This document shows positions 1 to 25,756 of a DNA stretch of 34,538 nucleotides, piece by piece; the stretch's first letter is position 1; every line of letters starts with the position of its first letter. A program made the translations under genes and the position numbers. Origin of the DNA: Klebsormidium nitens (taxonomy: Eukaryota; Plantae; Klebsormidiophyceae). Location: the NCBI GenBank assembly GCA_000708835.1, contig DF237711.1, positions 2,767 to 37,304 of the forward strand. Direction: 5' to 3'. The notes below the pieces were generated by a model, which did no database searches, was not told the DNA's origin, and saw nothing but the letters and a program-made list of their open reading frames with translations.

Positions 1-339
1 AAGAGGTTCGCCGTGCGCTTTTGTCAAGCGTTTCCAGACATCAAGACCATTAGCAAAGAGTTTGCTTTCATTCATTTTGGGCAAGTCGATATCAATCATA
101 ATAATGCTGTTTGGGCCCGATCGTCCGAATAGAAGGGCAAGGGCATTCTTGTCGGAACAGTTGCGAATTGTGTCTTCGTGCAACCCCCAAGAAATCTCAT
201 CCACGATGCTTGAGTATGAGCATCCAAAGCTCCTTGCGTCTTTCTTTCTATCCACTTTGTTCCATGTAAGCTTGAGCGTAACCGGCAGGAGATGAAGACT
301 CCAGTACGATGAGATGCTTTCATTGAGGTCCGGATTCAT
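1..339 (-). CDS. Prim-Pol (bifunctional DNA primase/polymerase, AEP superfamily) N-terminal domain protein, intronless, 3'-truncated by the window edge
   Basis: ATG at 339. The frame stays open to position 1, so it is missing from the ORF track. Translation: MNPDLNESISSYWSLHLLPVTLKLTWNKVDRKKDARSFGCSYSSIVDEISWGLHEDTIRNCSDKNALALLFGRSGPNSIIMIDIDLPKMNESKLFANGLDVWKRLTKAHGEPL. The segment N-A-L-A-L-L-F-G...I-I-M-I-D-I-D...N-G-L-D-V-W..L...H-G-E-P fits the Prim-Pol pattern (NxGhhTG...hhhhDhD...G...). The expected T-x-S-G-G-x-H motif would lie just outside the window. Confidence 0.75.
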   Translation of the reverse strand, partial: MNPDLNESISSYWSLHLLPVTLKLTWNKVDRKKDARSFGCSYSSIVDEISWGLHEDTIRNCSDKNALALLFGRSGPNSIIMIDIDLPKMNESKLFANGLDVWKRLTKAHGEPL

Positions 340-507
340 TTTAGGGCTGGGCAACCCTCTATGATAAGTACTAAGGAAAATAATTCCCGGAATCTGGACG
401 CGTTGAAATCTTGATTTTGAGAGAAATTGACCTCCATGCAAACGCATAAAAAGCAACGGCCGGTCCGATGGAACATGCAATGGATCAGTGCATCGTTAAC
501 AAGTCCA

Positions 508-780
508 CTAACAAATCTCGTTCATTGGGCTCAAATGTGAGTTGCCTTCTTGCACATACCCGGCAACTGCAAGCTTTGCCATGGTGGAGGGTCGAAGCCT
601 CTTGCCTTCGCAATATCGTATTAAAGCTTTACGTAAACATATCTCCACTTTAGCTTTGCTATAGTGTTTACGAGACCAATCTTTGTATTTGTCAAGATTC
701 GAGTGCCGATAGCGCGCTTCATACAGCCGCCGGTGATGGTTGGAATCAGGTTCTCTCGTGTCGGAAACCGACTCAGCCAT
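508..780 (-). CDS. Small basic hypothetical protein (90 aa), intronless
   Basis: ATG-started ORF rich in K/R/Y (RRLYEARYRHSNLDKYKDWSRKHYSKAKVEICLRKALIRYCEGKRLRPSTMAKL). It is co-oriented with and lies between the transposase and Prim-Pol ORFs, with an AT-rich stretch (~960-1000) upstream. No family assigned. Confidence 0.45.
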   Translation of the reverse strand: MAESVSDTREPDSNHHRRLYEARYRHSNLDKYKDWSRKHYSKAKVEICLRKALIRYCEGKRLRPSTMAKLAVAGYVQEGNSHLSPMNEIC

Positions 781-1101
781 AGCAACGTGCTTTACTGTCT
801 ACCCTATGAAAAGAAGATACTTTCCTGACGAATCACTAGATTCATGATGACGCCTGGGACACCTTGATCGCTCGCTATTTTCTCATGTGAGGTTTTTCAA
901 AATGGATACCCATGACTCAAAAACCAAGTGCCATGGTGCCAGAGAGTGTGTAGTGGAACCATGCTGTTGAATATTATTATACAAGTATATTCAAAAGGTG
1001 CCAGTAAGTGTCTTGACTCCCTTCTCTTCGCCCCCACATGAACGAGAGCATCCCACACGCTTGCGGGAAAGCTCAACAGCTATCAATCAACACATTATCT
1101 A

Positions 1102-4100
1102 TCACCTGTACAAGAGAGCTGCGCGAACTGCCGGCAACCAACGAACTACACTCCCAGCAATTCTGACCTTTTGGTCATCAACCCGTGTCAACTCTGCGTT
1201 GCGCCCGCTCACTACGTTAGCTAGAATGATCATGAACGCATTGAGACCGCTAAACCAACCTAGCACCTTGAATTTGATCAAGAAGGAGTTGACACTCTCC
1301 ACCGCAGAGGTGTTAACCCAGCGCACAGCATCGTAGTAGTCTGGATTGTACTGAGGACCGCAATTGTGCGCCTCTGGGCCAGTCTTCTGGAAGTGGAACC
1401 TGCATGTGCAATATCAAAGCATTTGATATGCACGCATACATCTTTTAAGAGGCGGCTGCTTTAAGCAGACATTAGGATGAGCCATCAAACAAAAGAAGTA
1501 ACTCTAGATGACGGGCCAAACTATTTTCGTTGTAACGAAGCCTTGAAATCTTTGTCGTCCAGTTTTTAGTGCCTCGACTGTCGCAAGTTCTGAGAATAAA
1601 GAATCTAGGGCCTTGAGAACTTTTGCCGTTCAGGTTTTGCAGATGATATGCATATATTAAAACGACAAAACGTGGACGGCGACTTGTTCTGTTCCCGAGC
1701 TTAGGCACGTGCCTCGACTGTCGCAAGTTCTGACTCCATAAAGGTTGATTATCTTGTCCTAGTTTAACGATCGATTCGCAAAGCATGGATGTATTTGCTG
1801 TTTACACACTCACCGGTCACAGAGGAACCGGACGTCAGCAAAGAACCCAGGCTCTCGGCGCATACTGTACGCGCGCAGCTTGCAGGCGTTGTCGTAGAAC
1901 AAAACGGAAGGCAGATTGTGCCGATGGAGGCGGGTGTACAACACCGCGAACGGATCACGAGGAGACTCTCCCCGAAGCATGGCGTGGAAGCCGTAGATCA
2001 CTCTGTGGGGGCACACGAACACAAATCCCCCCTTCGCCGTATGCTTCTGCAGCCGCTTGCCCGCCTTTTGACTTTTGGCTTTCGCAACCTTTGTATCATA
2101 CTCAGCCACGGTGAGACTGCTCTTACAGCGGTGCTCCTCGCTGCTCTCGACTGCCCGACCGAGCTCGTCCTCAAACGGCTTGTACTGGGGCAGAGGCCGT
2201 TTCTGCTCCCAACCGGGGAGGGGATAACAGCCGAGCACGTTCTGCTCCCGGCAGTACGGATGGTCTTTGGGGAGCGCTTCGAGAAGCCGTCCGTTTCCGG
2301 AGAGCCCTAGCCGATTGTGCAGCAGCTCGCGCTCGGCTTGGTTAAGAGCATACACGGAGGGGTTCGGTGGCTGCAAAGCCTCGACACCGGGAAGCAGTCT
2401 GTTCGCTCTCTCTCTCCAGAAGGTGTAGCTCTCGTCTCGCTCCTCGTTCCAAGACCCTTGGACGTCCCGTCGCAACTGCAGCAGCCAAACGCAGGCATCC
2501 AACCCCTCGATAGCAGACAGCGCCCACCCGGCTCGACCAACCCCCAGCCCGACTGCCCCGCGTCCAAACAGCGTCAGCCGGTACAAGTGGTGGAGCGTGG
2601 GCAGAAAGAAGGCCGGAAACACTCCATCGTAGCTATCCAGCAACCGACGAAGGATGGGCGCATGCTCAGCCAGCACGGCCTTTCCCCCCTCGTCTGCTGA
2701 ACCCCCCAGAAGGATCGTCCGAACAACAGCCAGCGCCGCCCCATGCTGGATCAGGTTGCTGTCGTCTGCAACAGACTGGGGGGTCCCCAAAGCGTAGAGC
2801 AGTTCCGCCCACCACTTTCGCGGCGAACGCACTCCACGGGGGTTGGCGCCCAGCGCAGCAAGGGTCTCCCCCCGGATCCCCTCCAACAGCAGCCGTGCAG
2901 CTCGGTTCTTCGATCGGATCTGCCCGATCTGCTCCTGCAGAAGGCGCCTCCTCCAGTGAAGCAGGACGGGCTCGGCATCCGCATTGTCGGGGTCGGGGAC
3001 AAACTCGGAGACGAGCTCCACGTCATCGCGATCCAGCGCAACCTAGGAAGAAGTCAAGAAGTCACATCCCTAAAGAGTGGAAATGATGAAGTGGGCATCA
3101 TCTGAAAGGCGCATTAAAATTGAGTTCCACAGAGCTAGAAGACCTCGTGTCAACCATTTTAAGTCCCACCAGAAGAACCTCGGCTAAGCATTGGAAGAAG
3201 ACATTTCGCCCATATGGAGCAGAGAGGCACCTAATAGCGTGCGCAGTTTGCGCGCAATCGCTTCCAAATTTGGAGGGTCTGAACAACTTTTAAAGACATG
3301 TCCGACCAATCTAGTTTGACTTTAGCTGATTTCAGCAGACCTTACAAAGGGTTTTTGGTCACAAGAATGATTTGTTTCACCTACCAACAGCTCATGAAAT
3401 TCACCCTCGCTCAACTGCGCCCCAAGATCCGGGTCCTTTGGATGATGTTGGCTGTAGCGCGCCAATAGAGCCCGCAGTTCCGGCTGGTGGATCAAGCGCC
3501 GCTTCAGCCCCCGCCCCTCCAGCCGCAGTCGCGCTGAAGTTCACACCGGCTTNNNNNNNNNNNNNNNNNNNNNNNNNNNNNNNNNNNNNNNNNNNNNNNN
3601 NNNNNNNNNNNNNNNNNNNNNNNNNNNNNNNNNNNNNNNNNNNNNNNNNNNNNNNNNNNNNNNNNNNNNNNNNNNNNNNNNNNNNNNNNNNNNNNNNNNN
3701 NNNNNNNNNNNNNNNNNNNNNNNNNNNNNNNNNNNNNNNNNNNNNNNNNNNNNNNNNNNNNNNNNNNNNNNNNNNNNNNNNNNNNNNNNNNNNNNNNNNN
3801 NNNNNNNNNNNNNNNNNNNNNNNNNNNNNNNNNNNNNNNNNNNNNNNNNNNNNNNCCCCCGCCCCTCCAGCGCAGTCGCGCTGAAGTTCACACCGGCTTC
3901 CATGTGCTTCACGACGTTCTCCCCGAAACCGTTCCGGCTCGGAGCTGTGAAAGGCCGGAGTTCGCTTGCCGCCGTCCCCGCGAGCCCCCCCTTCGATCTG
4001 CTACCATCCGCGCACGCTAGCCCGGCGATACCATTGCAGACCAAAACGTCTGGGTGAGGCCCGTAAAGGCTGCAGCACTCGAGGATGCTCCGCCCACACA

Positions 4101-6350
4101 GCCGGAAGAAGGCCAAGCAAACCTTTCGCCATGACTCCTCGCTGAGGAGGGGAGCGGCCCCCGGCGAGAAGAGCCCCCGGACCGCCTTCTGTGCACTGAT
4201 CAGGGCGCTGAACGCTGATCCTATCCCTTGAACCGAACGGAGCAGGAGCTGGCAAGTCTCTTGCCTGACGATGATGGCTCTGCTCCACGCGTACAGGCCA
4301 AGCGCTTCCCCGTTGAAGTGGACGGTGTGCTTCAACGGGCATCCGCAGCAATAGACCCGAACCTTGACCTGCAAGGATGTGCGCGCTTAGCCAACGTCCG
4401 TCCAGGTTCTGTCATCTATATTTTTTAAAATTAAAAACAATATTATAATGTTTATTATATGTGTCTCTGATGCAAAACCTGGACAAGATTTCGAAGGCAA
4501 AAATGAAGCCCAAGAATGCATTCGGATCGCCGTCCAGTTGTTGACAAAGAGCGCGCTCGAGTCGGCGGTCCAGTTTTTGCCAAAGAGTGCGCATTCAAGT
4601 CCCCGTCCACGTTCTGTCATCTATATATATGTGTCTCTGATGCAAAACCTGGACAAGATTCAGGTTTGCCGTCTCAGGTAGCCGTCCAGTTTTGCTCAGC
4701 GAGTTGACCGGACACGTGGCAACGCCTCGTGCGGACACATTGGCAGGCACCCTCACCTCAAGCTGAAAGGCTCTCAATCTTAAAGCTGCAGAAAGAACAA
4801 GCACCTTAACTTTGATCTGGCAAAAGCTTGCATCACGTACCTCTTGCGACCAGCGCAGTGAATGCACGCATGCGCTCTGCAGCAACGCTTGCCACGCGGT
4901 ACCACATGGAGCCAGTCCGGGCTTTGGGCAAGGTGCAGACAAGCACCCCGCGGCGCTCAGCTCCTCGAAGTCCCTCTGCACGAGCTCGCTCACTCTCACG
5001 GGCCGCCGCAGCGACGTCACCAGCGGATCGTGCACCTCGAAGCTGTCAGTCGGCCGGACCAGCTTAGGGACCTCGAGCTGCACACCTTTCGCGTCCAGAG
5101 GCAGCACCGGAGCCCAGAGCGGACTCCCGGCAACATGGGGGCAAGCCGAAGCTGGGCATACGCAGCTTACGCACACTCTGATTACGCTGCTCATTGCGTC
5201 CCTTCCGTCCCCTCCACCCAACGCCTGCGGCGCAGCGTGCGCAGGCACAACCTCTTCCTTTTCAGCTTGCAGCGCCCCCGTTCCCGTCAATTGCCCACCT
5301 TCCCGCTCTGGTTGAGCTGCCCAAAAAGCTTTAGACCTCTTCGGTCCCCGGTTCTGAGAAACTCGGTCCTCCCGGCTCCTGTCTTCCTCTCTTCCCCCCG
5401 GCCTCGCGCGCGTCAGTCCCGACTTGGCAGCACCCGATCTCGCAAGTCCCCCGCTCGAAATCTGCCCCTCCGAAGAGCTGCTGGTGCTGCTTACAGAAGC
5501 ACGATGCCCCCTTGCAGCTTGCCTCATGAGGCTGGCCCACGAGAAGCTCCTTCAGGTACCGTTCGACCGAAGACAGGTCGGACGACCCTTCTGCTGAGCC
5601 TCCCTCTTTCGACTCCAGCGCCCGTTCCCTCTCCTCCTTCCGGTCCGTTTCTAGCAACCAGGCACGTGCTCTTGCCAGCTGGTCATCGGAGAACAAGCAG
5701 CCGCTCACTCGCTCGATGCCTCTGCCTGGATTCCGGAGAGCGTCTTTGACAGCGCGTATGTGGTCGCAGTCTCCCGACGTGCTGCAACCCGACTGCTTGC
5801 CCTGGCAGTACCACGCCTCCCCCGCGCCCTCATCCTTGTGCACCATCGTCCGCTTGGGAGAAGGGGAAGCTGCGTTCCAGTAGACGCCAAAGACCCTTTC
5901 AGCCCCTCTGCTGCACGGAACCTCGATAACCCGCCTGCCCTTCTGGAGCGCAACGTGGCTGGCTTGCTGGCGCGACCCCAAAGCCGCGAGCGCCAACTTG
6001 TGGACGCATGGAGCATCCGGACCCAGGCGCCCGCGGTCGCAGGTGCAGCTGGACTTCCCAAGGGTGTTCCAATGGACCGTTTCGAGCAGGGCTGTGGACT
6101 TGCTTGGTCGTCCAAGGGGCTTTGGCCTGGCATCGTTGTGGTTCCAGACGGTCATGAGGTAGGCCAGGCCAGGGGGAACCTTCTCTCCCCGTTCAGAACC
6201 GCCCCCCAGCTCATAGATTGAGCACGTTCCGTTCTAAACGCCAGCAAGGAACCTCGTCGCTTGAGAGGTGAGAGAAGAAACTGCCGCGCCATCGGCATGA
6301 CAGCGCTCCTTGCTGTCTGAAGACTCGGCGCCTGATGTGGAGGGGTCTTC
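1102..6350 (-). CDS. KDZ (Kyakuja-Dileera-Zisupton)-type DDE transposase with SWIM and CxC zinc fingers, multi-exon, probably inactivated
   Basis: Inferred exons: 6350(or 6233)-4841, 4368-3405 (across a collapsible gap), 3278-3179, 3042-1814, 1399-1102. Splice sites read from the sequence: GAG|GTACGT...TTGCAG|GTC, GG|GTGAAT...TTCAG|A, GAG|GTTCTT...CCTAG|GTT, CG|GTGAGT...TGCAG|G; phases are consistent. Motifs: SWIM CTC-x10-CVH (~6047-6008); second Cys/His cluster WYC..C..CDH; YCCGCP..VHFNGEALGLY; CSLYGPHPDVLVCNG; FVCPHRVIYGFH...GESPRD; LFYDNACKL; and, after splicing, DRFHFQK....HNC...NTSAVESVNS. The last three match the KDZ catalytic core. Confidence 0.85.
1569..1733. repeat. 25-bp exact direct repeat inside the last transposase intron
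   Basis: GTGCCTCGACTGTCGCAAGTTCTGA at 1569-1593 and 1709-1733. Confidence 0.9.
3553..3855. other. Assembly gap (N-run) with duplicated flanks
   Basis: 3508-3552 is nearly identical to 3856-3899, differing by one base (CCAGCCGCAG vs CCAGCGCAG). Confidence 0.95.
4400..4660. repeat. Tandemly duplicated unit inside a transposase intron (4369-4840)
   Basis: GTCCA(G/C)GTTCTGTCATCTATAT at 4400-4421 and 4605-4626. TATATGTGTCTCTGATGCAAAACCTGGACAAGATT at 4456-4490 and 4626-4660. Confidence 0.9.
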
Positions 6351-6882
6351 CTGCGATGGACAAATTGTGATCATCTTCAAATCAATATTTGGAGTGAGCC
6401 ACCGCCAATCAAGCGTGAGCTAACAAGTGAGAAAGGCGCAGAAGGTACTGACCGAAGGGCACAATCCTCACGAGTTTGCAATCATACTGGACTTTCTGGC
6501 CACAAAAGCAGTGTAAAAGCTCTTGAATTACTCAATTGCAATCAGTTTCTTGCATTTGAGAGGACAATTAACAATTTAGCTTGCTCTTTTGTACAGTTAT
6601 TAGGTGGTGGAAGCTTGACACCTCTGGCACCTTTTATATATATTAGTAAAAGTATATACACTACACAATTGCACTGCACAACTTTAACGGCGTGGCACCT
6701 TGGCACCTTGGACACCTCATTTTCAATCATGGAACTTTCATTCATAAAAAACCTGAACGAAGCAAAAACAAGAGGTGGGGGTGTCCAGGGTGCCATCCAA
6801 AAATGAGACCATTGGCAGGGCGCGGCAGTTTCTGAGGGGCTCAACACCAGATCAGAACCTCACTGCACATTGAATAACTCAC

Positions 6883-7488
6883 GTTTGCGCTTGACGTCAA
6901 CTTGCGCTTGACGTTTGCTCCAGCAGTTCTCCCCCTGTTGAGCGCGCTCTCTGCAGCGGATTTGGCTACCTTGCCTGTAACTGACTGTCTGCTCAACGCA
7001 TCCCGCACCACCAATCTCTCTATGCAAGTGCTTGTAAGCTCTTTGACCTGCTTCCAGGGAGTCCCCTTCGATTCACGCTTGAACCACGTCTCACTGGTTG
7101 CTTGCTTCTGTGTCACGATTACTGAGGTCTCACTTACATGAACAATGCCAATCAAGTGGTCCACGCAAGAAAGACACAAAGGCTGCACGTGTTGCTTGCA
7201 CTTAACGGCTGACGAGATGGCAAACCCAAAATACTTATGAGACTTGCGGAAAGTGATCTTTTGTGTCGCTTCTTGCCCACTCTTGACTAGCAAGGGCTGC
7301 TTGCATAACACGCACTTGCTAGCTACAGGCGTTTCGCTGAACAGAAGGGCAGGATCAACAATGTATCGACCAGTCTGCAAACTCTTCTGGTCATCAAACC
7401 CTAGGTTGAGAGCTGGGCGAACCCTCTGCTGAGATGGCATGGTCCCTGGTGCATTGCATTGGCTCGGGTTGTAGTCGCCGCCTACCAC
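6883..7488 (-). CDS. Cys/His-rich ORF, likely first exon of the transposase gene or an accessory zinc-binding protein
   Basis: 215-aa ORF (6841-7488) with CVLC...CKQH-x4-CLSC. A strong phase-0 donor AAC|GTGAGT at 6882 is compatible with the phase-0 acceptors at 6351 (TCGCAG) or 6234 (GTTTAG). Confidence 0.55.
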
Positions 7489-7604
7489 TTGGATCTGAAG
7501 TTAAGACTCGGAAGAGGCTCGAAGTACGAATATCCAATTCAAGTTTTGTGGGAATTTATACCTCACTTTTTGGGAACCAGTCTGGCCTTCATCATAGTAT
7601 GACA

Positions 7605-7628
7605 CTCGACTGCTCGACTGCTCGACTG
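7605..7628. repeat. (CTCGACTG)x3 tandem octamer
   Basis: Three exact copies read directly from the sequence. Confidence 0.9.
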
Positions 7629-10600
7629 CTGCCTGCTATTCAGCTATACCACGTAGTTTTTTAAATTGTTCTCGTGTTTAAAGCGTGCAACGTGGGTCGT
7701 TTCCGAGCGGTTTTATGAGCGGTTATATCACGTGGGTACCCGGCCGGTGTAAAACTTTCCCCGGTTTTCGGGATCGCTGCCCGTCTCGACCTCAGGGGTG
7801 CCGTACCTGAATTCCTCTACGGCACCAGCTTCCTAAATAACGTCAAAGTGCCGGAAATTTAGCCTTTAGCGCGCAAAGACCGTCCGATCTGGCAGGTGAT
7901 ATTTGCGACGAATCTCGGCCGTCTATTTTATGCCAACGATCAGTTGGTGCCCCCGGGCAAATGCGGCCCTACGTTGACAGATTGTTAGACGGGCAGCTTG
8001 TCACGGCACCCGCAGGCCGTGCTCAGCGAAGCAAACGTCACTGGTTCAACCACCACCGGGGGTATAAATAGTGCTGGTTACCAGCTTTGCCATAATCACC
8101 TTTCGCAACTTGAAAATTGCGACGGGCGCATTGGGGCGCGCAACACTTACAACAAGGCCAGCAGAAAAACAGGCCGTTTCTTTCCGTTTGAGCGGCGGTT
8201 TCGACCTGGCCTCGCTCTGTTGACTAAAGTCGAGCGATAGAAAGAAAGACCGCCGAAAACAGCGAAGTAATGCTTCTGTTTTCAGATTTATAAGCTCAAA
8301 TTTCCATAAGTTGGAAGCATGCGCCTTCGGGCCGAAATTTGAATTCCGGTGGCCGTTGGCGAGAATGACAGCCGGTTTGCCCCAAGTTATACCCCCGGTG
8401 GTGGTTTAAGGGTCCAGCAAGATGATGACAAAATGGGAATGGTCCGCGGGACGACAGCATTTGGCCACTCCCGATCCCGTATGGCCCATAGCCTATGCGG
8501 AGTTGGAGTGGCCGGGGCGGAGTTGGGTGGGAATGCAAGGTCGCGCCAACTGCCAAGCGGCGGCCCCGGCGGCCGCGCGTCCGGCTGACGAGGTTCAGCT
8601 AGAGGGTTTGGACTTTAGAGCCCTTTTGCCTCACTGTGGAGAGGTGCGGTACCCCCCTTCATTGAAATTCATCGTCGCAACATTAAGATACCGTACTTTA
8701 TGGTACGTACCTCCAGGGGTATATCCAAAGTCGGTAGTGCTCGGTATCTGTGGAAAACCACGTGGGCTTAGACTCTTCCCGTGGAAGGGGGATCGCTACT
8801 CGCCAGTCACAGCAGAATGGCCGGCCACGCAGCCAGAGCCAAGTTGCACCTTGTTTCAACAGACCTTTTCCCCATTCTGATCTATTGTAATCTCGATTAG
8901 CCTTGTGCTTTGTGCTTCGTGCTTTTGACGGTGGTGACTTTGAATATGAGCTGGCTGCGGCGGGGGCGGGCCCAGGAGGGCGCCTACTTCCGCCAGGAGA
9001 CAGAGTTTGCTGCCGCCAGACTGCGACGAGAACTGAAAGAAAAGGGATTGTTGGTCGAGAGCACGCCGAGGCGGAAGGTGGCATGGGAGGACGGGGCCTC
9101 TGAAATTCTGCCGGAAATCTTGCAGGTGTGTCCACTAAGGTGGTGGTTTATTGGATATAGCAATGCCGTGTTCCTGATCGTCGCTCAATACATGCAGTGG
9201 TGGTGTTGAGACACCTTGCTAAAGTGGTCAAGTAACCTAGCCTATCACTGGAATTTTGGTTGCATGAGAAAGTTATCTATAGCTATTGGCTGGTACATCT
9301 GCACAGATTTGGCATGAGAAATACAGCTGAGTTGTCTGAGTGCCTTCAAATCAAGTGAACAGCAAGGGCCGGGGGTCCTCATGTTGGGATTGGTGGTGGT
9401 GTGGGCAACCATAATGGATACAGTCACAATTGACCAAATTTGGTTAGAGTGCTCGTCTTCCACTTCCGGTCAACTGCCCTCTAACCAGGTTGGTCAAGGA
9501 AGAGTATGTTCTGTAACTTGACTTAGATGGCTGGACAGTTCTTTGAGCACTAAGTGCAACAGAAGGACCTCCATCTGAGAAGCGGACACCTTGAAGGCTG
9601 CGGGACACTTTACATAGTTAGCTCTGCGGCACTGATCATACTCAGGGCAGATAGAGGCATCTCAGAAAATGCCCCAGTTATATTTGTCGTCTCGATTGGA
9701 GATTAAGAGTCAACTTTTTCTCAAAAGTAGAAAGCAGCTGGTGAGGGTTGATGTCTTGCAGTGTTTTCGTACAGCGCTTGCAAACGCTTCATATGCAAAA
9801 ACCCCTGCAGGGGTTTTGTCCACTCATCATGGAAACTTAGCGTCTCTCAAAAAAAAATTAAGAAAGGGTTGTTTCTGCTTGATGACAGGATTCAAGCAAT
9901 CAGATGTGGCAATCATGCGGATTTGAAAGCAGAGCCTCCTCTGGACTGAATCAGTGTCAACGTTAACTTTGGAAGATGTGCAAATCTGGATACACTTTGC
10001 AATTCCAGAGAGGCGCTTTGATTTGCAGAACGAACTGCCCCTGAGTGGGGGTGCAAGCGGGGAAGCTCCTGAGGTTCGGAGGACCAAGGTCATCTCCCCT
10101 TCTTCCGCATCTAATCCCGTTTTTAATACGTCCAATTCGGCCCTTGACCACTTCAGCCGGAGCCTGCCCCAAACCACGCTCGGGCGAGGAAGGTGCGTGG
10201 ACCTCTAAGGCGGTGTTGGTGCTGTTGTAAGGGGGTAAAAGGCCACCTGAATCTGAGGTCTGATCCGTTTTCTGTGGACCCAGGGTCATCTTGGATTAGG
10301 ATTCTGATCGGCCTGGGATCTTGTGTGGTTTCTTAGCGGAAGCTGGGCTTTCTCGCTTACATTTTCGTCGAGTTTGTGAGCCTGGCCCTAAATTCAAGGC
10401 CTATTTCGGAGAACGTTCTCTTGTAATTCCAAAGAATTGCAGCTTGTTTCCCGTCGGTTCCTTACTTCAGAGCGGCTTCTCGTTTTTAAGCCGAACATGC
10501 CTTTTCAAGAAGGATTGAGAAGTTGACCACGGCGAAATCCGTAGGTTTCTGTGAACAAGAGAGACAGGACGCCGTTCCTACTTTCTGACCCCTCTCCCCC

Positions 10601-14170: not shown

Positions 14171-17100
14171 ATGGGAGTCTTCGACGCTGAAAGTGCCGCC
14201 TTTCTGGTTGAGGGTGGAAAGCTTGTGGTCCAGCAACGCACGAGAGCTTTCCAGCCTGTTTCCTGCTTTGGCAGTCTGCAGGGCAGTTGCAAAGTACGTA
14301 CTCCGAAGAGGGAAAGTTTTGAAGCGCCAGGGCGGACAGGTAGCGACGAAAAGCGACGAAAAGGGAGGTGCTAAGGACTGCTTTAGCAGCCATCACGCAA
14401 GCCCGAAGCGTGCACATGAGGCGTAGGGTGTGCAGAAGGAGCCACGCCAAGATTGGCCGCCAAAGTGGAGCCGTTTGATGACGTCAGGTCTAGGCCGCAA
14501 CCCCCGGGAGAATGGGTCTCCTGGGAAAGAGCAGGAGCAGGGGTCCGAACATGTTTCTCATGCCGCGGCAGTGGCAACTATCAGCATGGATCCCACTGCT
14601 GCGGAGGCAACAGATGACGGGACAGGAGAGGATCAGAGGCATCAGACAGGGGCGGTTGATGGACCTAGCAGTAGTAGCGATAACAACAGGATTGTGGCAG
14701 AGCCTCAGCAGTCTGGTCAGAAGGGGAGTATTCATGCCGCTGACCGTGTGAGGGGTGGAGATGCAGGGGTTAGCACTCTAAAGGTGAGGGGGAGTCAATT
14801 TTGCTAGAGCAGTTGCATTTGAGCAGGATTTCTTTCTTCTCCGTGTCCCAGAAGAGTCTGCGCGACATACACTGTTCTGGCAATAAGCAGGATCACGCTC
14901 TGACTGCTTAGCAGAGTTGCAGTTGTTCTTGACAAGTGCCTGCAGATACCGGCACAAGTTAAGCTGGTCTCCGCAGCCTAGTCGTTTTGCATGAACCTCA
15001 AAACTTGCATTGAATGCATATCTTCTTCAAGCGGGGTTGTGCCTATCACTTCCAAAGATTAGAGGGGCTTGCTTTAAAATGTTAGCCTGTGCACCTCAGA
15101 AATGACAGGGAAGCAACAGCAAGGAGTCATGCGAAGCTGAGTGTAGCATAGGATTTTCCCAGAACACCAGATTGGGAGGATAGCCACTAGCTGAGACCCC
15201 CATCACTTACATTCAAAGACGAGAGCTTGACAGAACATACATCAAAGGGCAGCTGCTAAGGATCACTATTTGTTGAGGAGATACTGAGCAACCTGGGGTT
15301 ACGCAATATGCAGAAGCTTCTTGTCACTTACATATAGCCTGAATCAGTAGATGCAAAAAGGCACCCCCCCTGAACCCTTGTAAACGAGGAGAGACAGTAA
15401 TGAAGTAAGTTACAAGAACATGGGGGAAGTTTCCGCAGCTTAGAACATCAATGTCCAAGCAGGGAAACTGTCAAGAATCTGATCCAAGGCTCAGCTTGTG
15501 AATGTGTTGGCAGCATCTTAATTTGAGAGCTCAAGCATCAGGGATGAAACAAGTTGAGTTGTCTGTGCGAGCATACGAAGCACAGCCTCCAATGGAACAG
15601 ATGCAACGCAAGTAATGGATCCCCTAGGCCAGCAGAGCAGCCTTTGATAGACTCTCAAGAGTTGTATGAAGCGTTGACAAGCAGAGCAAGTACTGGGTTT
15701 GGAAGGATTGAGTTGTGTTCACAAGTTGGTATTGCATGATCGCATGAGAGCAGAAACCTTTGAACAAAGCATTATCAGACGTCCCATAGGCAAGCTACAG
15801 TAGGTCTCATTGGCTGAGCCCCTTATGAACGTACCCCCATATAGGCAGGCCAGAATAGGGCAGCTCTTATATCCCCCTTCCAAAAATAGGGCAGCTCCCT
15901 TATCCCCCCCCCAAACTAGAGGCATGCTCATGGGCAGACTGAACCCCCTGTGCAGGTTAGGCCAGGCTTTGGCTCTTGCCGCTGCCGCTGCCCCCCCCCT
16001 CTGACCCCCCCTTGCGCTTCTCTTGACGCCTCTGCTTGCCTGTTCCCCCAGGACCAGGAGGGGGACAACAGCCGCAACGCCTCGGGGGAGCTCGGTAGCT
16101 CGTCTGGCAGCAACAGCCTCGACGATGGCAACTGCAGCAATACTGCGGAGGGGGGGAAGGAGCAGCAGGATGGGAGCAGCAAGCAGGCTGAGAAGCAGCC
16201 CCCCCTGCAGGGTCAGAAGTTGCAGCAGGCGCCAGGGCCATCCCCCAAGTCCCTGGGGTGCGGTAGTGAGAATCGGCAGAAGGGGGGCAAAGGGGGGGGT
16301 AACACGAAGGGGGGGGAAGAGGAGGAGAAGGAAGTGCAGGGGAAAGAGGAGCAGGGGGCGGGGGATCAGGAGGAGGGGGGGCGGCCGGTGTTAAAGAAGC
16401 CAGACAAATTGGAGCCCTGCCCGCGCTGCGACAGCTATGACACCAAATTTTGCTACTACAACAATTACAACATCAAGCAGCCACGCCACTTCTGCAAGAA
16501 CTGCCAAAGGTGAGGGGAGACGCTGATTGAGTTTTCTGAGCTCCTTTTGAGTCACATTGTGCATTGGAGCTAGGTTTGTGCTCCAAGGCTTTGATTCCTG
16601 GATGATGGGATTCTGTGTGCTCTGCTTGATTTGCCAACTATCGCATAAACAGTCTGCTTCTAGTCTCTTGAAGCAGTAGGCAACTCCCTTCCTCAGTTGA
16701 TCCCCCATTCTTGGCTCCATTCTGCATTGGTTGCCAAACTTAGGACTCTGGTCACAAGAGCTGCCATCTGATCATCTGCAATCCTACTTTCGAGTAGACG
16801 AGTCCCTCTCTGTACAAATTTGTACAGACAGTTTAGAATCATCTTTTGAAACCCTGCCTGATCACATGCAGATGGCAGAACACAGGGTCCTCTACAACCC
16901 ATGTTCTTAGGTCAAGTTTTCATCTTTTGGGCACACATTTTGACCTTTGTCTCATCTGGGTATGCAACTCTCCATTTCAACCCTTATGCTTCAAACCTGA
17001 GAAAACCTCAATGAGCTTCTTTTTCACTCAAATCAGTTCCTCAACCTTTGCTTAACCCAGTTTCTCCATCCCCCCCCAGGTACTGGACTGCCGGCGGCAC

Positions 17101-18659
17101 TCTCCGCAACGTCCCGGTCGGCGCTGGCCGCCGCAAGAACAAGCACAAGTCCATCCAACGCCTCGGCCCCGGATCAGGCTCCGACTCAGAGCTCGTCATC
17201 CCGTCTTCTTCCGGTGGCGAGGACTACCTCGTGCGCAGCGGAAGCCTGCGCTCCTCCAATCCCTCCCTCAACGCCACCACCTTCAAGCCCCCCGCCTCGC
17301 AAGGCTTCCAGGGCCGCTTTGTGACGTCATCCAACCCGCCTCTCTACGATTCCGGCACCAACGACAAGAGCGGCGTCACGCACAAGCGCGACGGGACCTC
17401 CGCCGACGAGATGCAGTCCGGGGATCAGTTCCGGGGACCGCACTACGGGGGGGCGGCTGAGGCAGGGCCGGAGGCAGACCCCCGGCGCGCGAAGCGTGTC
17501 AAGCGGAACCCCCCCCCCGAGACGGGGGTGCCCGTTGGTCGGTTCGGTCGGGGCTTCAGAGAGAACTCGGAGTGCATGTCGAGCCAGGCCGACAACCGTG
17601 ACGGGGGGGCGTTTGTGGCGGACGCGATGATGTCACCCGAGAGCGCCAAGAACGCGCAGTGGCCGGCGCGTGCGGGGGAGGCGTTTGGAGGGCCGGTTAC
17701 GGGATGGAATCAGGGGGCGGCTGTGCCGGCCACTCCTACTGGGGGGGCCTGGGCGCCAGGCAACACCGCCCCTTGGGGGGGGATGTGGAACCAACCCTGG
17801 CCTTACCAGATGCCGATGGGCCAACGTGGAACGGAGGCGGGGGGGGACGACGAACGTGAGTAGGCGTAAGTCGTAGGGAGGCGTAAAGGCGACGACGAAC
17901 GGGGATACGGGATGAGNNNNNNNNNNNNNNNNNNNNNNNNNNNNNNNNNNNNNNNNNNNNNNNNNNNNNNNNNNNNNNNNNNNNNNNNNNNNNNNNNNNN
18001 NNNNNNNNNNNNNNNNNNNNNNNNNNNNNNNNNNNNNNNNNNNNNNNNNNNNNNNNNNNNNNNNNNNNNNNNNNNNNNTGTGGAACCAACCCTGGCCTTA
18101 CCAGATGCCGATGGGCAACTGGAACGGAGCGGGGGGGGCACAAGTGATGGCTACTCCGGGGGCCAACTATGGCGCTTCTCCGCAGGGGGCAAACTGGGGC
18201 ATGGTTGACAACTCCTCGTTTGGGGGGGGTGCAAACTGGGGGGCGAGTCCGGTGAACGCTGCAAATGCGGCAGCCGCGTGGGCGAACGCAAACGTGTGGG
18301 CCGGACTTGCGGCGGCGGGGAATGCGTGGGGGCCCCCCTGGGCCGCCTGGAGCGTGTTTGGGGCGGGCCCGGCAGCAGCGGCTGCGGGCATGGCGCCGAG
18401 CCCGCAACCGGCGCCGGGGGGGGGCATGGGGAAGCACCGGCAGGAGGGGGGTGGAGAGGGGGAGACCCGAGCGGACGGCGTCTGGGTGCCCAAGATTGTG
18501 AGGACAGAGCCGGTCCGGGGGAGTGCACCGTTGCAGTGGCAGCAGCAGCTGGGGGGTGGCGGGGACGCGGGGTACTTGGGTTTGATGAAGAACGGGGAGA
18601 TGGCGGACTCGCCAGGGGGGCAGGAGGACGGAGTTCCCACCCCGCTGAATCTGCTATAG
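14171..18659 (+). CDS. CDF: Dof zinc-finger transcription factor, CYCLING DOF FACTOR (CDF)-like
   Basis: Exons 14171-14293 (less certain), 14436-14783, 16052-16509 and 17080-18659 (across a collapsible gap). The Dof domain [39 protein letters not shown]|[21 protein letters not shown] is split by an intron (AG|GTGAGG...CCCAG|G). The C-terminal GKH...VWVPKIVR resembles the CDF motifs LGKH and LWVPKTLR. Confidence 0.93.
17917..18078. other. Assembly gap (N-run) with duplicated flanks
   Basis: TGTGGAACCAACCCTGGCCTTACCAGATGCCGATGGG occurs at 17784 and again at 18079. The left copy degrades into noisy sequence. Confidence 0.95.
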
Positions 18660-20062: not shown

Positions 20063-23000
20063 TCATGAGTACTCAGCAAAGTCGTCGGCGTTCCCTTCAT
20101 CCCCATACACCCCCTCTCCATGCTCCAGCCCCTGCCCCCCAAATCCAGCATCTCCCCCCATCCCAACTTCGTTCAACCCACCCTTTTTTTTGCCTTTCAA
20201 CTTGGACCCTTTGCCCGCTTTCTTCCCGTTGCCGAGCCCAACTTTCGTCCCACCCCCCCCCTTCCCGGCGCCTTTCTTTGACTTGGGTTGCCCCCCTGAA
20301 ACGAGAGCAGCCTCCTCCCCCGGGTGTACTTTCGCCTTCCGCTTCCGGCGCCCCCCCAAGCCGTCCGCATCGAACCCCGCATCCGCTGGAAAGAAGGCGA
20401 TTTCCGTTTTGTGCTGCTGAAAGTATGGGTCATCGGAAGCAGAAAGCGAAAGTTGGGGCTTCGAAAAAGTTCAGGACGTCAGCGAATGTTACTGGAAAGG
20501 GCCGGCCGCCACGGCCATGACGTCAGAAAGCAAGTGTCAAGCATGTATCACCGCTTTGCAGTTGCAAAGATTCTTCATAGGCGCCGGGTGCCGCGTTTTG
20601 GATGACATAGCTGTGGGCGATCGCTATGATAGGTTTGACCTCTTAACAGAAAGTTCAACACACTAATGACAGGGTGGACCTCTTGAGAAGCGAGAATCCA
20701 GGACGTGTTGGACCAAAAACGAACACGATTCGCCTGTACCGACCACTGCATTCCCTGCAACTCTTGCTCTGCAGACCTCCTAAAAGAGAACCCACCTAAA
20801 ATCGGGTCTGGAGTGACTGGAGTGACAGGACACCAGATCCAGTCCGCGAACAGAGAGCATGTCTTTCCATTCGATGCTAAACCCCCGTAAGTGTCTCCCA
20901 CGAAGAAAAGCTCCGACTTCTTCACAAAGAAACCGCGCAAAGCAATTCAGCGAAACTTTTTTGTCGCGAATTTCCGACAACGTCGGGAAAAAAGAAACCC
21001 CACCCACCTAGCCGATTCGACGGCCCTGGCGCCTCAACCGTTCTCGCCGCCGCCCCCGCCGCGTCATCTTCCGCGACGGCGGGCGCCTCGGTTTCCGGGG
21101 GGTCCGGCTCGGGTTTTACCGGTAGGAAGTAGAGCCCGTCCTCGTCCGAGTCGCTGTATGCGCCCACCTTCTCGACGGTCTCGATGTCGAGGTCGATGTC
21201 GCTATCCACGTCCTTTTGACCCTTTGGCGCCTGTCAAAACGATCAAAATATAGGCGTTTTAGGACTTCACACTTTGATGCTAGAAGCATAGGGGAAGAGT
21301 TTCCGAACTTCAGGATCTGCGCTTCCAGATGTGGTTTTTGTGGGGTAGTCTCGATCAGAGGCACCGGAAGCGTCCATTTCATCAATGCTCTCGCTGATAA
21401 GAATGGTGTCGCTCTCCTTGTCCGTCCACCCCTTGGCGCCTGCATAACACTCTAGCTGTGATTTTTAGAAGCTTGCAAGCTAAGGATGGGGTCCCTTTTA
21501 AGTAGAACCGCTCTAGGCGCCTACATCGTCAACGGTCTCGATGTCGAGATCGATGTCGCTTTCCACGTCCTTTTGGCCCTTTGGCGCCTGCACAAGGTTG
21601 TTGAATCTGTGTCATTGCATCATGCAGTTTGATAAGGAAGTCTTGGTACCTAGTCTTGATCGGAGCCACCGCAGGCGCCAATTATTCGACGAATGCAACT
21701 TCAAGTTCGATACCGGTGTCCACGTCCTTCTTTAGGCGCCTGCGCAAAAAGACTCGGGGTTCCCAGCTTTTTCAGCTTGAGAATATTGGTTACCCTTTGA
21801 TGGATAGTCGTGTTCCTTCCGGTCACCGTATGTGCAGTTCTTGCTGTGGTCTCAATGTCAATGTTGATGTTGTTGTCCACTGTTTCTTTGCCCTCCTTCC
21901 GGCAGGGTTTCAGGATTTGGGCTGTTTTGTGGATTTTCGCTTTTGGGTTTTGGACGTTTACATCGTAATCTCAGAAAGCCCTTCTTCGAGAAGTTTTCCG
22001 CCTTCATTTGCGCGCCCTCTTTACCCTTTCCTTGAAAGGAGTGTGTCGCCTTCTTTTAAAATTTGGATCATTGATTGGCTGCGAGGGATTCCTCTGGGCC
22101 CCAACCTGCTGGTGCGGTCGAAGTCAAGCGGGCAACCGGTGACCCAAAAATAAGGGTTTTCATCAGGTTAAGTTGGACCAAGAAAGGTGAAATCAAACTT
22201 AGTTCAAATGTTAGAACGACCAGCTCACAACCCAGACCCTAGCTCGACTTATCGTCAAAGTTATGAGCAGATCTGACCAAAGAGCTATTAGTTAAGAGTC
22301 CAATACACTGTTATCTTGAAGTGACAATCCGTAAGTCTTCGTAACCAACTCGTAACCGAGCCCCGGTAACCGACCTCGTCTTCCCGCGGGTTAGAGTCGA
22401 ACTCGTCCTCCCGTTCGTCGTACTCGTCGTTCTCCTGGAGCTCCTTGAAATCCGGTGCGAATGCGCTCCAGTTCTCCTGGTACTCTTTCGCCCACACGTA
22501 GATCACACCGGTGGTTGCGACAGAGGCGACAATCGGACGCGTCGGGTGCCACGCCATATCACGGACGCCCTCCTTCGGACCGTCCAGCGTCCGCATGATC
22601 TGCAAGATGAAACTACCTTTCATTCCCAGTCTTTTCCTTGTTCTGCAAGGCATCGTCGAGATGCTGTTATTTGAGAAAGACAAGCGACATTGAGACGTAG
22701 CAGATCTGATTGTCGACAAAAGAGAAACTGGGAAGAATCAAGTGCCAGTAGAAAATAGTGCCACGGAATCCATTACCTACTTATCTATCCCTCTAAGGAC
22801 GTCAACCGAAGCCACCCTCAGCTCTACTCACCGCCACTCGAAGAAGGTCGCAGCATTCCTGTCAAGCAACCCATAAGCATTTCACCCCTGGACAACACTG
22901 TGAACCCCCAAGGCTACCCAGTTAAATAGCTGCAGCAATCTTCTTGAGTTGCTATTCGTAGGATCGCATTTAAAGCAACCAAACGCGACCCCCTTCGGAA

Positions 23001-25756
23001 ACTGGAGCCCAAGGATCGACGTTGATCGAGGTCTGATGACCTTCATGAGGGAGAGGTTCCATTCGCAGCAACTCACCTGGGGATAAGTCGTCCCCCACAA
23101 TATCAGCTTATGCTCCCCCTGCTGCGCCGATGCCCCCATTACGTATTCCGTATCGCCGCTAAAGCACGCCGTCATCCAGGGAACGTTATTGATCGGATCC
23201 TTGTGATCGCAAATGTACGTAAAGAACGGGTTCGCGAGTTTCTTTCTAGGGGGGGCGCCCGCCAGGCTGGCCTCAGCCTGCTGCGCCGCCCCCCGCTCCG
23301 CGGCAGCCGCGGCCGCGCCCTCGACGGGGAGCTCGACCTTGAAGATGCGCAGCGTGCGGTCGCTGGAGTTGGTCATCAGGTACTGGCCGTTGCGGCTGAC
23401 CACGATCTGACGCACCAGCTGGCCGCCTGGATACGGATGTAAGAAAGAATGTATGGAAAGAGTTACCAGATAGTCCAAGTTCAATCTAGATTGGTTGCTA
23501 AACGGAGCTCGATTCCCATCAGGTCAAGCGAGAAGCTGGCCGAAAATGAACTGACACATCCGCTGCTGCTTGCAAGTCCACTTCCCTTCGTGATCCTCGC
23601 CCAGATATGCCGCCTAGTCGGGCCAATGGTCCGTCCTTTGTTGCAAGAGCAGGAACCAAAGGAATGTTACATCAACGATCTTCAATCGTACTTCTGATAA
23701 AAAAGAATGTGGTGTAAGCTTTGGGACTCCCTACAGGCTCAAGGCATCTCACTATATTTTTCGGATGAGGGCCCCACGCCGCACTTGCGTTTGCCAAGAA
23801 ACGGCTCTTCATCCGACCCCTTTTAGATGAGACAAACCCTGGGTTCAGTTCTTGTTAAAACAACAAAAAAGCTCTCTGTTCACTCTGTGACTCAAACAAA
23901 AGCCCACCTTGTATTTGCATCCGCCCCAATACCTTCTTACTCGCTGTCTCAACCACGAGCACCTCCCCCCGCGCCGTCCCCACGAACACCAGATCCCCTC
24001 GCTTGTTAAACACCGCCGCACCAAATGACACCGAGACCCCCTCCCCCCCTTTCCCCTTCCCCGCCCCCCCCGCCGTGATCTCATCCACACTCAACAACGG
24101 CCCGCACCGCGCCTCTTCCCCTGACACCCCAAAGTTGTCCAGGAGAAGGGGGGGGCCTTGTTGCGGGCATACTAGACACATGGCGCTGTCTTTGGGGTGT
24201 AAGGACACGCGCAAGATCGTGTATTCACACTTGTAAGATGCGACGCGGGCCCCCGAGGCGACGTCCCAGAGCGAGATCAGATTGTTCTGGACAGTTGAGG
24301 AGACCAGGCGTCGCCCGTCCTTGGACCAGCCCACGCTCGAGATCCAGAAGGGTTCCCCATCGATTCTGAGTTCTTTGGCGACGCCCCGGGTGTCGAAGTC
24401 CCAGACGAGGATCGAGCCGTTCGTGCAGCCGGCTGGAAAGCAAGAAGAGAAAAAGGAATGTTCATCACGATGTCACAAAAGGCCCCGATCGAGCATCTGC
24501 TCATGCCAGGGTGCAATAACTTACTTTCTGAGAAAGTAATTGACAAGAGAGATGATGAATTTCCCCTGGCTGTCCTTCGCGTAAAGTATGCATCCCTGAG
24601 GGTAGGTGGTCGCGATTGAGAGGAGGAATAGCTGACCATATTACCTGCCTTGGTTCTGCCTGAATGAGTGGTAAAGTGCCTAAAAATGGGGTAATATGGA
24701 TCCCAAAGTCTGTCAGTATGACTCTCCTTTGGCGAAGCAAAGCGGTCAGGAGATACAACACCCAGTATACTTCAATCACAAGTCCCACTTTAAAGCATTA
24801 GCTACTGAAGATTACCAATTGAAAAGCTCATAAAAGGCGTCACTCTCAAAGCCCCATTTGTGCCGCACCCCTTGTCACAAAGTGTATCGAATCTTCTTGC
24901 TGGACACTAGCATCATCGACACCGAGGGATTACTCGGCCTACCTGCAAGAAGCGTACCCCGCCGGTTGAAAGCAACGCACTGGGCATAGTACGGCTCCTG
25001 GTATAGGTACTCCTCAATGACTTCGGGGAAGTCGAGGACAAAGCCTTCGTTGGAGTATGACGGATCTGGTGCACAGAGATCAGCCCATGTTTAGCACATC
25101 TTCATACAGGGAGCATTCTACATAGCCACTCGTTTAGAGACGTTGAGTGATCAAAAGGTTTGCCCCTGGAACATTCAGTTTCCGCGGGCCCACCATACAT
25201 GTTCAGTAAATCATACCCCAGCCAACATCATTTTTGCCATACCTACGTTCGCAGATTCTTCCAATATAACTTCAACACTGGACAAAGCTGGCTAAAAAAT
25301 CAGGAAGATAAAGTAAGGAGAATAGCATCATTCTTGTTTTTTGGACTGGGCACTTGCAGCATCAAGGCCGCCACCAATCAGAGAGCGCTTTTCTAATCTG
25401 CTCGGTAAAGTGACGTGGGCCCTTGTCAGTTTACCCAACAGTTTGCAAGATACTGTGTGCTTCTCTGCTAGCCACCACCTCCACAAACCTTTGAAAATTC
25501 AAGGTAGATTGAGAATCTGGTCCAGCCACCACCGTTCGCTAACTCGTTGCTTTCTATCTGGGAAAGCTAGCCCAGAACCATCTAGCTGACCAGGCCCGCG
25601 TCAATGTGACCAGTGCTCTGACTGACTTTCAATTACGTTTTTCATCCTTGAACATTGCACCACTTTTCCATCTTCCATAAGGCGAGGAAGAAAGAAAAGG
25701 ATTATATTGTTTGAGGGATAAAATGGATACCACTCACTGTGTAGTGTCAGATTCAT
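20063..25756 (-). CDS. RBBP5: Retinoblastoma-binding protein 5 (RBBP5/SWD1/RBL), WD40 subunit of the COMPASS H3K4 methyltransferase complex
   Basis: Exons 25756-25738 (MNLTLH; less certain), 25065-24943 (DFPEVIEEYL...AFNRRGTLLA), 24432-23908 (AGCTNGSILVWDFDTRGVAK...GWSKDGRRLVSS), 23426-23077, 22599-22375 (DMAWHPTRP...ENWSAFAPDFKELQENDEYDEREDEFD), 21230-21008 (DIDLDIETVEK...LYFLP) and 20385-20063 (less certain; basic NLS-like tail). All junctions are GT-AG and phase-consistent. Confidence 0.93.
21239..21745 (-). repeat. Three degenerate tandem copies of the RBBP5 exon-6 acceptor plus exon start, inside intron 5
   Basis: CAG|GCGCC acceptors at 21739, 21587 and 21439 precede the functional one at 21230. 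The copy at 21587 encodes APKGQKDVESDIDLDIETVDDVGA*, versus APKGQKDVDSDIDLDIETVEKVGAY in the real exon. Confidence 0.88.

Follow-up and report, generated by a model that had tools for sequence, protein, structure and literature searches.

Eukaryotic cut-and-paste transposons are thought to depend on the replication and repair of the host. To our knowledge, replication genes of their own are brought only by Polintons and by fusions such as Teratorn, and a cut-and-paste transposase paired with its own DNA-replication enzyme would be unusual. Here we describe a stretch of nuclear DNA of 34,538 bp from the streptophyte alga Klebsormidium nitens (the window), the left part of which contains a gene for a KDZ-like transposase, a small basic open reading frame (ORF) of 90 codons and the start of a gene for a primase-polymerase (Prim-Pol) of the archaeo-eukaryotic primase (AEP) type. 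We read the left 7.5 kb as a decayed copy of a multi-copy KDZ-like transposon in which the transposase, the 90-codon ORF and the Prim-Pol gene likely form one mobile unit, with a primase and superfamily 3 (SF3) helicase that would replicate the element. We assign this reading a probability of roughly 0.55.

KDZ transposons in fungi carry TET/JBP genes (PMC12730594, in part). With these elements (PMC12730594, in part) the K. nitens locus has in common a large transposase, probably of the DDE type and with putative Cys clusters (CxC, SWIM) ahead of the catalytic part, a multi-copy state and an adjoining gene for an extra enzyme. The differences are that the element resides in a streptophyte alga, that its likely cargo is a predicted DNA primase-helicase rather than a dioxygenase, and that the KDZ and CxC4 scores stay just below the cut-offs. 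According to the same paper (in part), Kyakuja elements duplicate 7 bp of the target site and end in CA..TG with no inverted repeats, and Zisupton and Dileera have 8-bp duplications. The word 'primase' has no occurrence in PMC12730594. Polintons, polinton-like viruses and transpovirons also combine an integrase or transposase with a replication protein of their own, and AEP-SF3 fusions are common there (bioRxiv 10.64898/2026.10.13.758929, in part). In contrast, the recombinase of the present locus is KDZ-like and not of the rve or tyrosine type, and no capsid, packaging ATPase or pPolB gene is found among the window ORFs scanned. In Teratorn (piggyBac plus alloherpesvirus), a cut-and-paste DDE transposase is joined to foreign replication genes that include a primase (PMC6431247, in part). 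Teratorn is ~180 kb long and contains a whole herpesvirus gene set (PMC10175614, in part), whereas one replication gene and no virion genes are seen here. Polinton-type systems and Teratorn use other recombinases than the present locus and, transpovirons excepted, have virion genes (PMC6431247 and bioRxiv 10.64898/2026.10.13.758929, in part).

The order of Prim-Pol, Cys/His module and SF3 helicase that is predicted for the gene is also that of phage and plasmid primase-helicases (P4-like, PDB 6k9c, C962R of African swine fever virus (ASFV)). Unlike these, the Klebsormidium gene is nuclear, eukaryotic and multi-copy. Its identity to prokaryotic and viral sequences is at most 43% over the 56 metagenome loci found with the Prim-Pol profile, except for two 22-residue matches at 59%; these matches are generic and uninformative on linkage to KDZ genes. 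The full-text literature yielded no report that combines KDZ, transposase and primase, none that combines Klebsormidium and Kyakuja, and no paper that mentions the four K. nitens locus tags; Repbase and subscription journals lie outside this search.

An earlier note on this DNA, made from the letters alone, described four minus-strand ORFs in tandem. All four are present, and they represent three genes, its 'Cys/His ORF' being the first exon of the transposase. The features of the region are as follows.

1-339, minus strand: start of the Prim-Pol gene, first 113 codons, cut by the window edge; ATG at 339-337, motif I IDIDLP
340-507, minus strand: non-coding spacer with two in-frame stops, from translation
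508-780, minus strand: 90-codon basic ORF between the KDZ gene and the Prim-Pol gene, position conserved
823-941, no strand assigned: variable spacer, with 145 unrelated letters in one paralog type (joint 822->942) and a gapped alignment in another
889-1010, plus strand: left arm of an imperfect inverted repeat, located just past the transposase stop and composed of an AT-rich tract and two GGTGCCA motifs
1102-1399, minus strand: transposase exon 5, stop TGA at 1104-1102, NTSAVES motif; 87% identity to the paralog P0002 by tblastn
1814-3042, minus strand: exon 4, Pfam KDZ match (E = 0.002) and YDNAC motif
3385-4368, minus strand: exon 3, CxC4-like cluster (Pfam CxC4, E = 0.031)
4841-6350, minus strand: exon 2, SWIM-like CxC...CxH
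6618-6757, minus strand: right arm of the inverted repeat, an AT-rich tract with GGTGCCA motifs, inside intron 1 (6351-6882)
6883-7488, minus strand: exon 1, the former 'Cys/His ORF'; donor GTGAGT at 6882-6877

Compared with its relatives, the ORF at 1-339 is the true start of a putative AEP Prim-Pol gene, which bears out the Prim-Pol ORF cut by the window edge that the earlier note had proposed. It shares 84% identity with the related protein P0029 (E = 1.5e-61), which has a precomputed Pfam Prim-Pol match (PF09250), and 91 of its 113 residues (81%) are identical in P0046, a protein of 822 residues (E = 1e-60). Both alignments begin at residue 1. The likely start codon is the ATG at 339-337 and not position 480: P0029, P0031 and P0046 begin with this Met, and the alignment of P0022 opens at its residue 4. 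Motif I of the window ORF (DxD, IDIDLP) aligns with the invariant columns D83 and D85 (alignment A5). Contigs that run off the left window edge continue in frame through a 30-letter loose end, which in hand translation reads ...GEPL/TWTAETQSGG, the start of AEP motif II; the T-x-S-G-G motif that had been expected beyond the edge begins here (...TQSGG). The full motif II (SGGLHYYF) and motif III (ID[YF]RG) are found in P0022, P0029, P0031, P0046 and P0049.

The long relatives P0046 (822 residues) and P0049 (832 residues) come from the 90% clusters of P0029 and P0031, and P0049, located on a Logan contig, is an uninterrupted protein, which is compatible with the intronless state that the earlier note gave to the Prim-Pol gene, 113 codons of which lie in the window. 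The Pfam Prim-Pol profile (cut-off 22.8 bits) gives 46.6 bits for P0046, 52.9 for P0049 and 45.4 for P0022, and the SF3 helicase domain DUF5906 (cut-off 27.6 bits) gives 64.2 bits for P0046 and 67.2 for P0049. In relatives that are 56-81% identical to the window ORF, open frames of 822 and 832 residues contain each of the three AEP motifs together with a Walker-A helicase. PDB entry 6k9c, 'Primase' (E = 8e-14), and PHROG 'DNA primase' families are matched by the helicase part of P0046. The PHROG 'DNA primase' matches range from 1.4e-31 to 2.8e-58, and the more distant protein P0027 matches ASFV C962R (E = 1.3e-7). By analogy with the 81%-identical relative, the window gene is predicted to encode ~820 residues with an SF3 helicase domain.

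A HMMER search against 1.84 billion representative proteins gave six matches, three of which are real (P0022 with 67% identity, P0026 and P0027); all three are Pfam Prim-Pol proteins, and P0027 additionally has D5_N and DUF5906. The other three (P0023-P0025) are tandem-repeat proteins with 9-13 short stretches and were judged false by eye. The profile search gave 19 matches, 18 of them with precomputed PF09250, including K. nitens KFL_008310030 and KFL_003120140. No match was obtained in a longer-protein search with the Prim-Pol fragment as the query. The neighbours of the fragment in a protein atlas are response-regulator clusters with scores of at most 0.86, which were dismissed as noise.

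A second and larger Prim-Pol lineage outside the window (P0026-P0050) is ~33-35% identical to that of the window and combines Prim-Pol and a Cys/His module with D5_N and an SF3 helicase. Many copies lie on JGI and Logan contigs, and the lineage is also represented by K. nitens KFL_008310030. The first ~350 residues are common to both lineages; the helicase parts differ.

Linkage of the Prim-Pol gene to the transposon is likely, not proven. Contigs of four DNA runs, all from one sample, were aligned to positions 1-3500 at >=80% likeness. Positions 1-819 are multi-copy, like the KDZ exons. In one run (X1), 238 contigs were placed, 185 of them at <99% identity to the window. The summed contig depth of this run, which does not equal copy number, is 92-241 over 1-819, 84-242 over the KDZ exon bins and 25-45 over the spacer 820-1053; contigs identical to the window have a depth of ~15. 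Up to five distinct contigs cover each of places 247 and 611, and up to ten cover place 2985.

The junction itself is found in more than one form. In contig records 1/22 and 15, the stretch 664/716-822 is connected to 942-1076/1084 by 145 unrelated letters that stand in for 823-941, and record 16 spans 664-1090 with 40 differences and 37 gap letters; differences across these records number 13-40. Therefore, at least two junction variants besides that of the window link the 90-codon ORF to the 3' flank of the KDZ gene. The 90-aa basic ORF of the earlier note, located at 508-780, is covered by several paralogous contigs and has no match in Pfam, PHROGs or the 45 related proteins collected. Some paralogs lack 411-541, and the corresponding joint 410->542 is present in four of four runs.

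The neighbourhood recurs at a second K. nitens locus. KFL_003120140 (Prim-Pol with a helicase tail, GAQ86808.1) and KFL_003120160 (the KDZ paralog P0010, GAQ86810.1) lie on one scaffold of 105,864 bp and are separated by one gene number, which mirrors the window order of KDZ, small ORF and Prim-Pol. With ~25 KDZ genes assumed among ~16,000 K. nitens genes, the chance of such a neighbourhood is roughly estimated at <1% per Prim-Pol gene.

The transposase gene runs from 7488 to 1102 on the minus strand in five exons, and all four introns are of the GT-AG type. The exon model combines the tblastn alignment of P0002 with splice sites read in the window; this paralog (1259 residues, 85% identical) aligns to 7068->1105 on the minus strand. 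Across intron 1, the reading frame of exon 1 carries on into exon 2, and exon 1 matches the N-termini of 10 of the 21 KDZ paralog proteins, as seen for P0010, residues 36-227 of which align to 7452-6889 (E = 1.8e-30). Because the paralog N-termini match and the GT-AG junction to exon 2 is in frame, the 'Cys/His ORF' is assigned to the transposase as its exon 1. The paralog list is limited to proteins of 707-2015 residues; within it, 21 K. nitens proteins match (43-100% identity), located on contigs of 21 different lengths; 20 of these proteins are additional to the window's own (43-85%). The latter, KFL_007620010, is 100% identical to the ORF at 1810-3021 and lies on a scaffold of 37,304 bp that extends at most ~2.8 kb beyond the window.

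Both the five-exon gene and its paralogs appear to belong to a KDZ-like family, with profile scores close to, and just below, the thresholds. The window exon scores 18.3 bits on Pfam KDZ (PF18758; curated cut-off 26.6). The same profile matches nine of the 21 paralogs at E<=0.01, with a best score of 25.8 bits (E = 1e-5), and none reaches 26.6. CxC4 matches seven of 21, the best with 26.3 bits versus a cut-off of 26.9, and no Pfam family beyond KDZ and CxC4 is matched by the 21 proteins. PF18758.8 is precomputed for P0003 and P0019, and nine of the 20 paralogs (window's own model excluded) bear the UniRef name 'SWIM-type domain-containing'. The paralogs have three conserved motifs, LCDGIAG, YDNAC and NTSAVES, which presumably contain the catalytic triad (DDE). 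The spliced KDZ transposase of the earlier note is upheld as a spliced, KDZ-like gene, with Pfam KDZ and CxC4 matches just under the cut-offs.

Judged from its reading frame, this transposase copy is decayed. Exon 2 is interrupted in frame by a TAG (6236-6234; Gln in P0002) and has a switch from frame -2 to frame -3 near 5362-5376 that leaves no space for an intron; both the stop and the switch are seen in the window when it is aligned with each of the four paralogs tested (of 20). Exon 3 reads LCNGIAG. The 12 other sequences that fit the pattern all have D at this position, and eight of 21 lie outside the pattern; this D is presumably a catalytic residue. Exon 3 also contains a gap of 303 N (3553-3855) with a 44-nt direct duplicate on both sides (3509-3552 and 3856-3899), and P0002 aligns across the gap without a break. 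The gap is therefore an overlap of contigs in the assembly, with no sequence missing.

Repeats are also present within the gene. Two transposase introns contain, at 1569-1733 and 4398-4691, members of one short repeat family that face opposite ways (inverted pair 1628-1686 / 4596-4654, 78%), and each has perfect direct repeats within it, 25 or 35 nt long, at a spacing of 140 or 170 nt. They look like insertions resembling miniature inverted-repeat transposable elements (MITEs) or like duplications. At the 3' end of exon 1 (6885-6914), a 13-nt unit is repeated at 17-nt spacing (a tandem duplication of 17 nt), and the protein reads KRKLTSSAN where P0002 has KRKL.

An imperfect inverted repeat of ~115-135 nt (core pair 968-1004 / 6624-6660) brackets exons 2-5. 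Its arms contain five of the ten GGTGCCA motifs of the window, and a sixth lies at 6789-6795, just past the right arm; 5.15 motifs are expected in 34.5 kb. An inverted-repeat end between 780 and 1102, which the earlier note had named as part of what would count against its reading, exists in so far as one arm lies at 968-1004, but its partner at 6624-6660 lies in intron 1, so that the arm is probably not the element terminus. The pair was rejected as the element termini, since the right arm is intronic and exon 1 accompanies the gene in 10 of 21 paralogs. When 1-1110 was compared with the entire window by short-word blastn, no other inverted partner was found. The repeat could be what is left of a smaller core element or could represent transposase-binding sites; that it serves as iteron-like sites for the primase-helicase is speculation.

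The earlier note had offered two alternatives, a KDZ element that carries its own primase-polymerase and a KDZ element beside an endogenous virus-like fragment. The multi-copy region, the junction variants and the second locus favour the former. Several observations weigh against one self-replicating unit. Neither element termini nor target-site duplications were found in the window, and the left end lies beyond it. The transposase copy is decayed, and summed contig depth does not equal copy number. All bridging contigs come from one sample and end at 1076-1090, 12-26 nt short of the stop codon at 1102-1104. Only one of the two annotated K. nitens Prim-Pol genes could be placed beside a KDZ gene; for KFL_008310030, the listed proteins of 707-2015 residues include no KDZ protein from a contig of its length. 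The KDZ-linked Prim-Pol lineages are ~35% identical versus ~67% for the KDZ proteins, a divergence that could reflect independent captures. The inverted repeat could mark a smaller core element with the Prim-Pol gene outside. In small eukaryotic DNA viruses, moreover, AEP replicases are reported to pair with tyrosine recombinases and DDE enzymes with pPolB (bioRxiv 10.64898/2026.10.13.758929, in part).

The fragment by itself (113-160 residues) gives no Pfam or PDB match and its atlas neighbours are response-regulator clusters (scores <=0.86), as would suit a chance frame or a fragment of a host gene unrelated to primases. This explanation is refuted, its probability being close to nil, by the alignments to P0046 and P0029 that start at residue 1 (E = 1e-60 and 1.5e-61), by the retained DxD columns and by the off-edge contigs that run into SGG. 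The two genes may instead belong to separate neighbouring elements, a KDZ transposon and another Prim-Pol-helicase element (an endogenous virus-like, plasmid-like or polinton-like replicon), their co-occurrence being due to segmental duplication or insertion preference. Such an arrangement would accommodate a spacer (823-941) that is unconserved between copies and consists of 145 unrelated letters in one variant, the inverted-repeat left arm with its clustered GGTGCCA motifs (889-1010) between both genes, and the listing of K. flaccidum with phycodnavirus-like DNAP, MCP, ATPase and VLTF3 in a table of PMC5294986 (in part). However, the D5 column of that table is blank for K. flaccidum, and no relative of P0027 was found in IMG/VR. 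Not counting the window, at least two forms of the junction exist that are not identical, the divergent second locus repeats the neighbourhood, and the inverted repeat has its right arm in intron 1 of a gene that exon 1 accompanies in 10 of 21 paralogs. A Pfam scan of 33 of the 42 ORFs of >=120 residues at 7500-34538, the other nine being overlapping frames in the GC-rich Dof region, detected no capsid, packaging ATPase or polB and gave no sign of the endogenous virus-like element of the earlier note. We regard separate elements as unlikely.

A further explanation is that the KDZ transposon took up the Prim-Pol gene as passive cargo that has no part in transposition, comparable to fungal TET/JBP genes or Pack-type gene fragments. 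TET/JBP genes are passively carried and exchanged by KDZ and other fungal transposons (PMC12730594, in part), the ~35% identity between the KDZ-linked Prim-Pol lineages is as expected from repeated capture, and KFL_003120140 looks like a truncated or mis-joined model. By contrast, the uninterrupted relatives of 822 and 832 residues, with AEP motifs and Walker-A, argue for selection on function. The recurring order of KDZ, small ORF and Prim-Pol also speaks against passive carriage, although it fits the explanation that we prefer as well. Passive capture accordingly receives a low probability in our assessment.

In the preferred reading, one mobile unit with its own primase-helicase, we infer that both genes lie within one pair of element termini. 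A replicative role of the Prim-Pol gene is suggested by its domains and by the intact relatives of 822-832 residues. The primase-helicase would act once the DDE enzyme has excised the element, or while the gap is repaired, and would prime and unwind the DNA of the element itself; the two inverted AT-rich/GGTGCCA patches are candidate sites of this action. Copy number would be raised before or during reintegration, and the element would act as a capsid-less replication-plus-integration module. A more far-reaching version, which we put forward tentatively and hold to be rather improbable, is a self-replicating KDZ transposon that would combine its DDE transposase and a small basic protein with an AEP primase-SF3 helicase and with two inverted, iteron-like AT-rich/GGTGCCA patches that serve as origins. 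Such a capsid-less integrating replicon in a streptophyte alga would constitute a new class of self-synthesizing mobile elements in eukaryotes, or else the integration/replication arm of a larger virus-like element that extends past the scaffold.

If true, a KDZ transposon equipped with an intact primase-helicase would open a new path linking transposons with plasmids and viruses, and would do so in the algal lineage nearest to the land plants. The element would moreover unite an AEP replicase with a DDE enzyme, a pairing reported as unusual in small eukaryotic DNA viruses (bioRxiv 10.64898/2026.10.13.758929, in part). This scaffold, KFL_003120140-160 and the P0046-type genes provide loci for testing a transposon-borne primase in extrachromosomal amplification.

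To the right of ~7.8 kb, the window contains ordinary host genes recognized by Pfam.

15920-17863, plus strand: host Dof zinc-finger gene; an intron splits the Dof domain (Pfam 3.7e-17 and 6.2e-08)
22288-24472, minus strand: host WD40-repeat gene with several exons

The sole Pfam matches of the 33 scanned ORFs are Dof, WD40 and one weak zf-P11 match on transposase exon 1. The Dof gene is followed by a very GC-rich and Pro/Gly-rich region and a second assembly gap (N run at 17917-18078). Upstream of transposase exon 1, an 8-nt unit occurs three times in tandem at 7605-7628. At 8045-8409, a 23-nt inverted repeat (96% complementary, arms 319 nt apart) is present, which may be a small MITE to the right of the KDZ copy.

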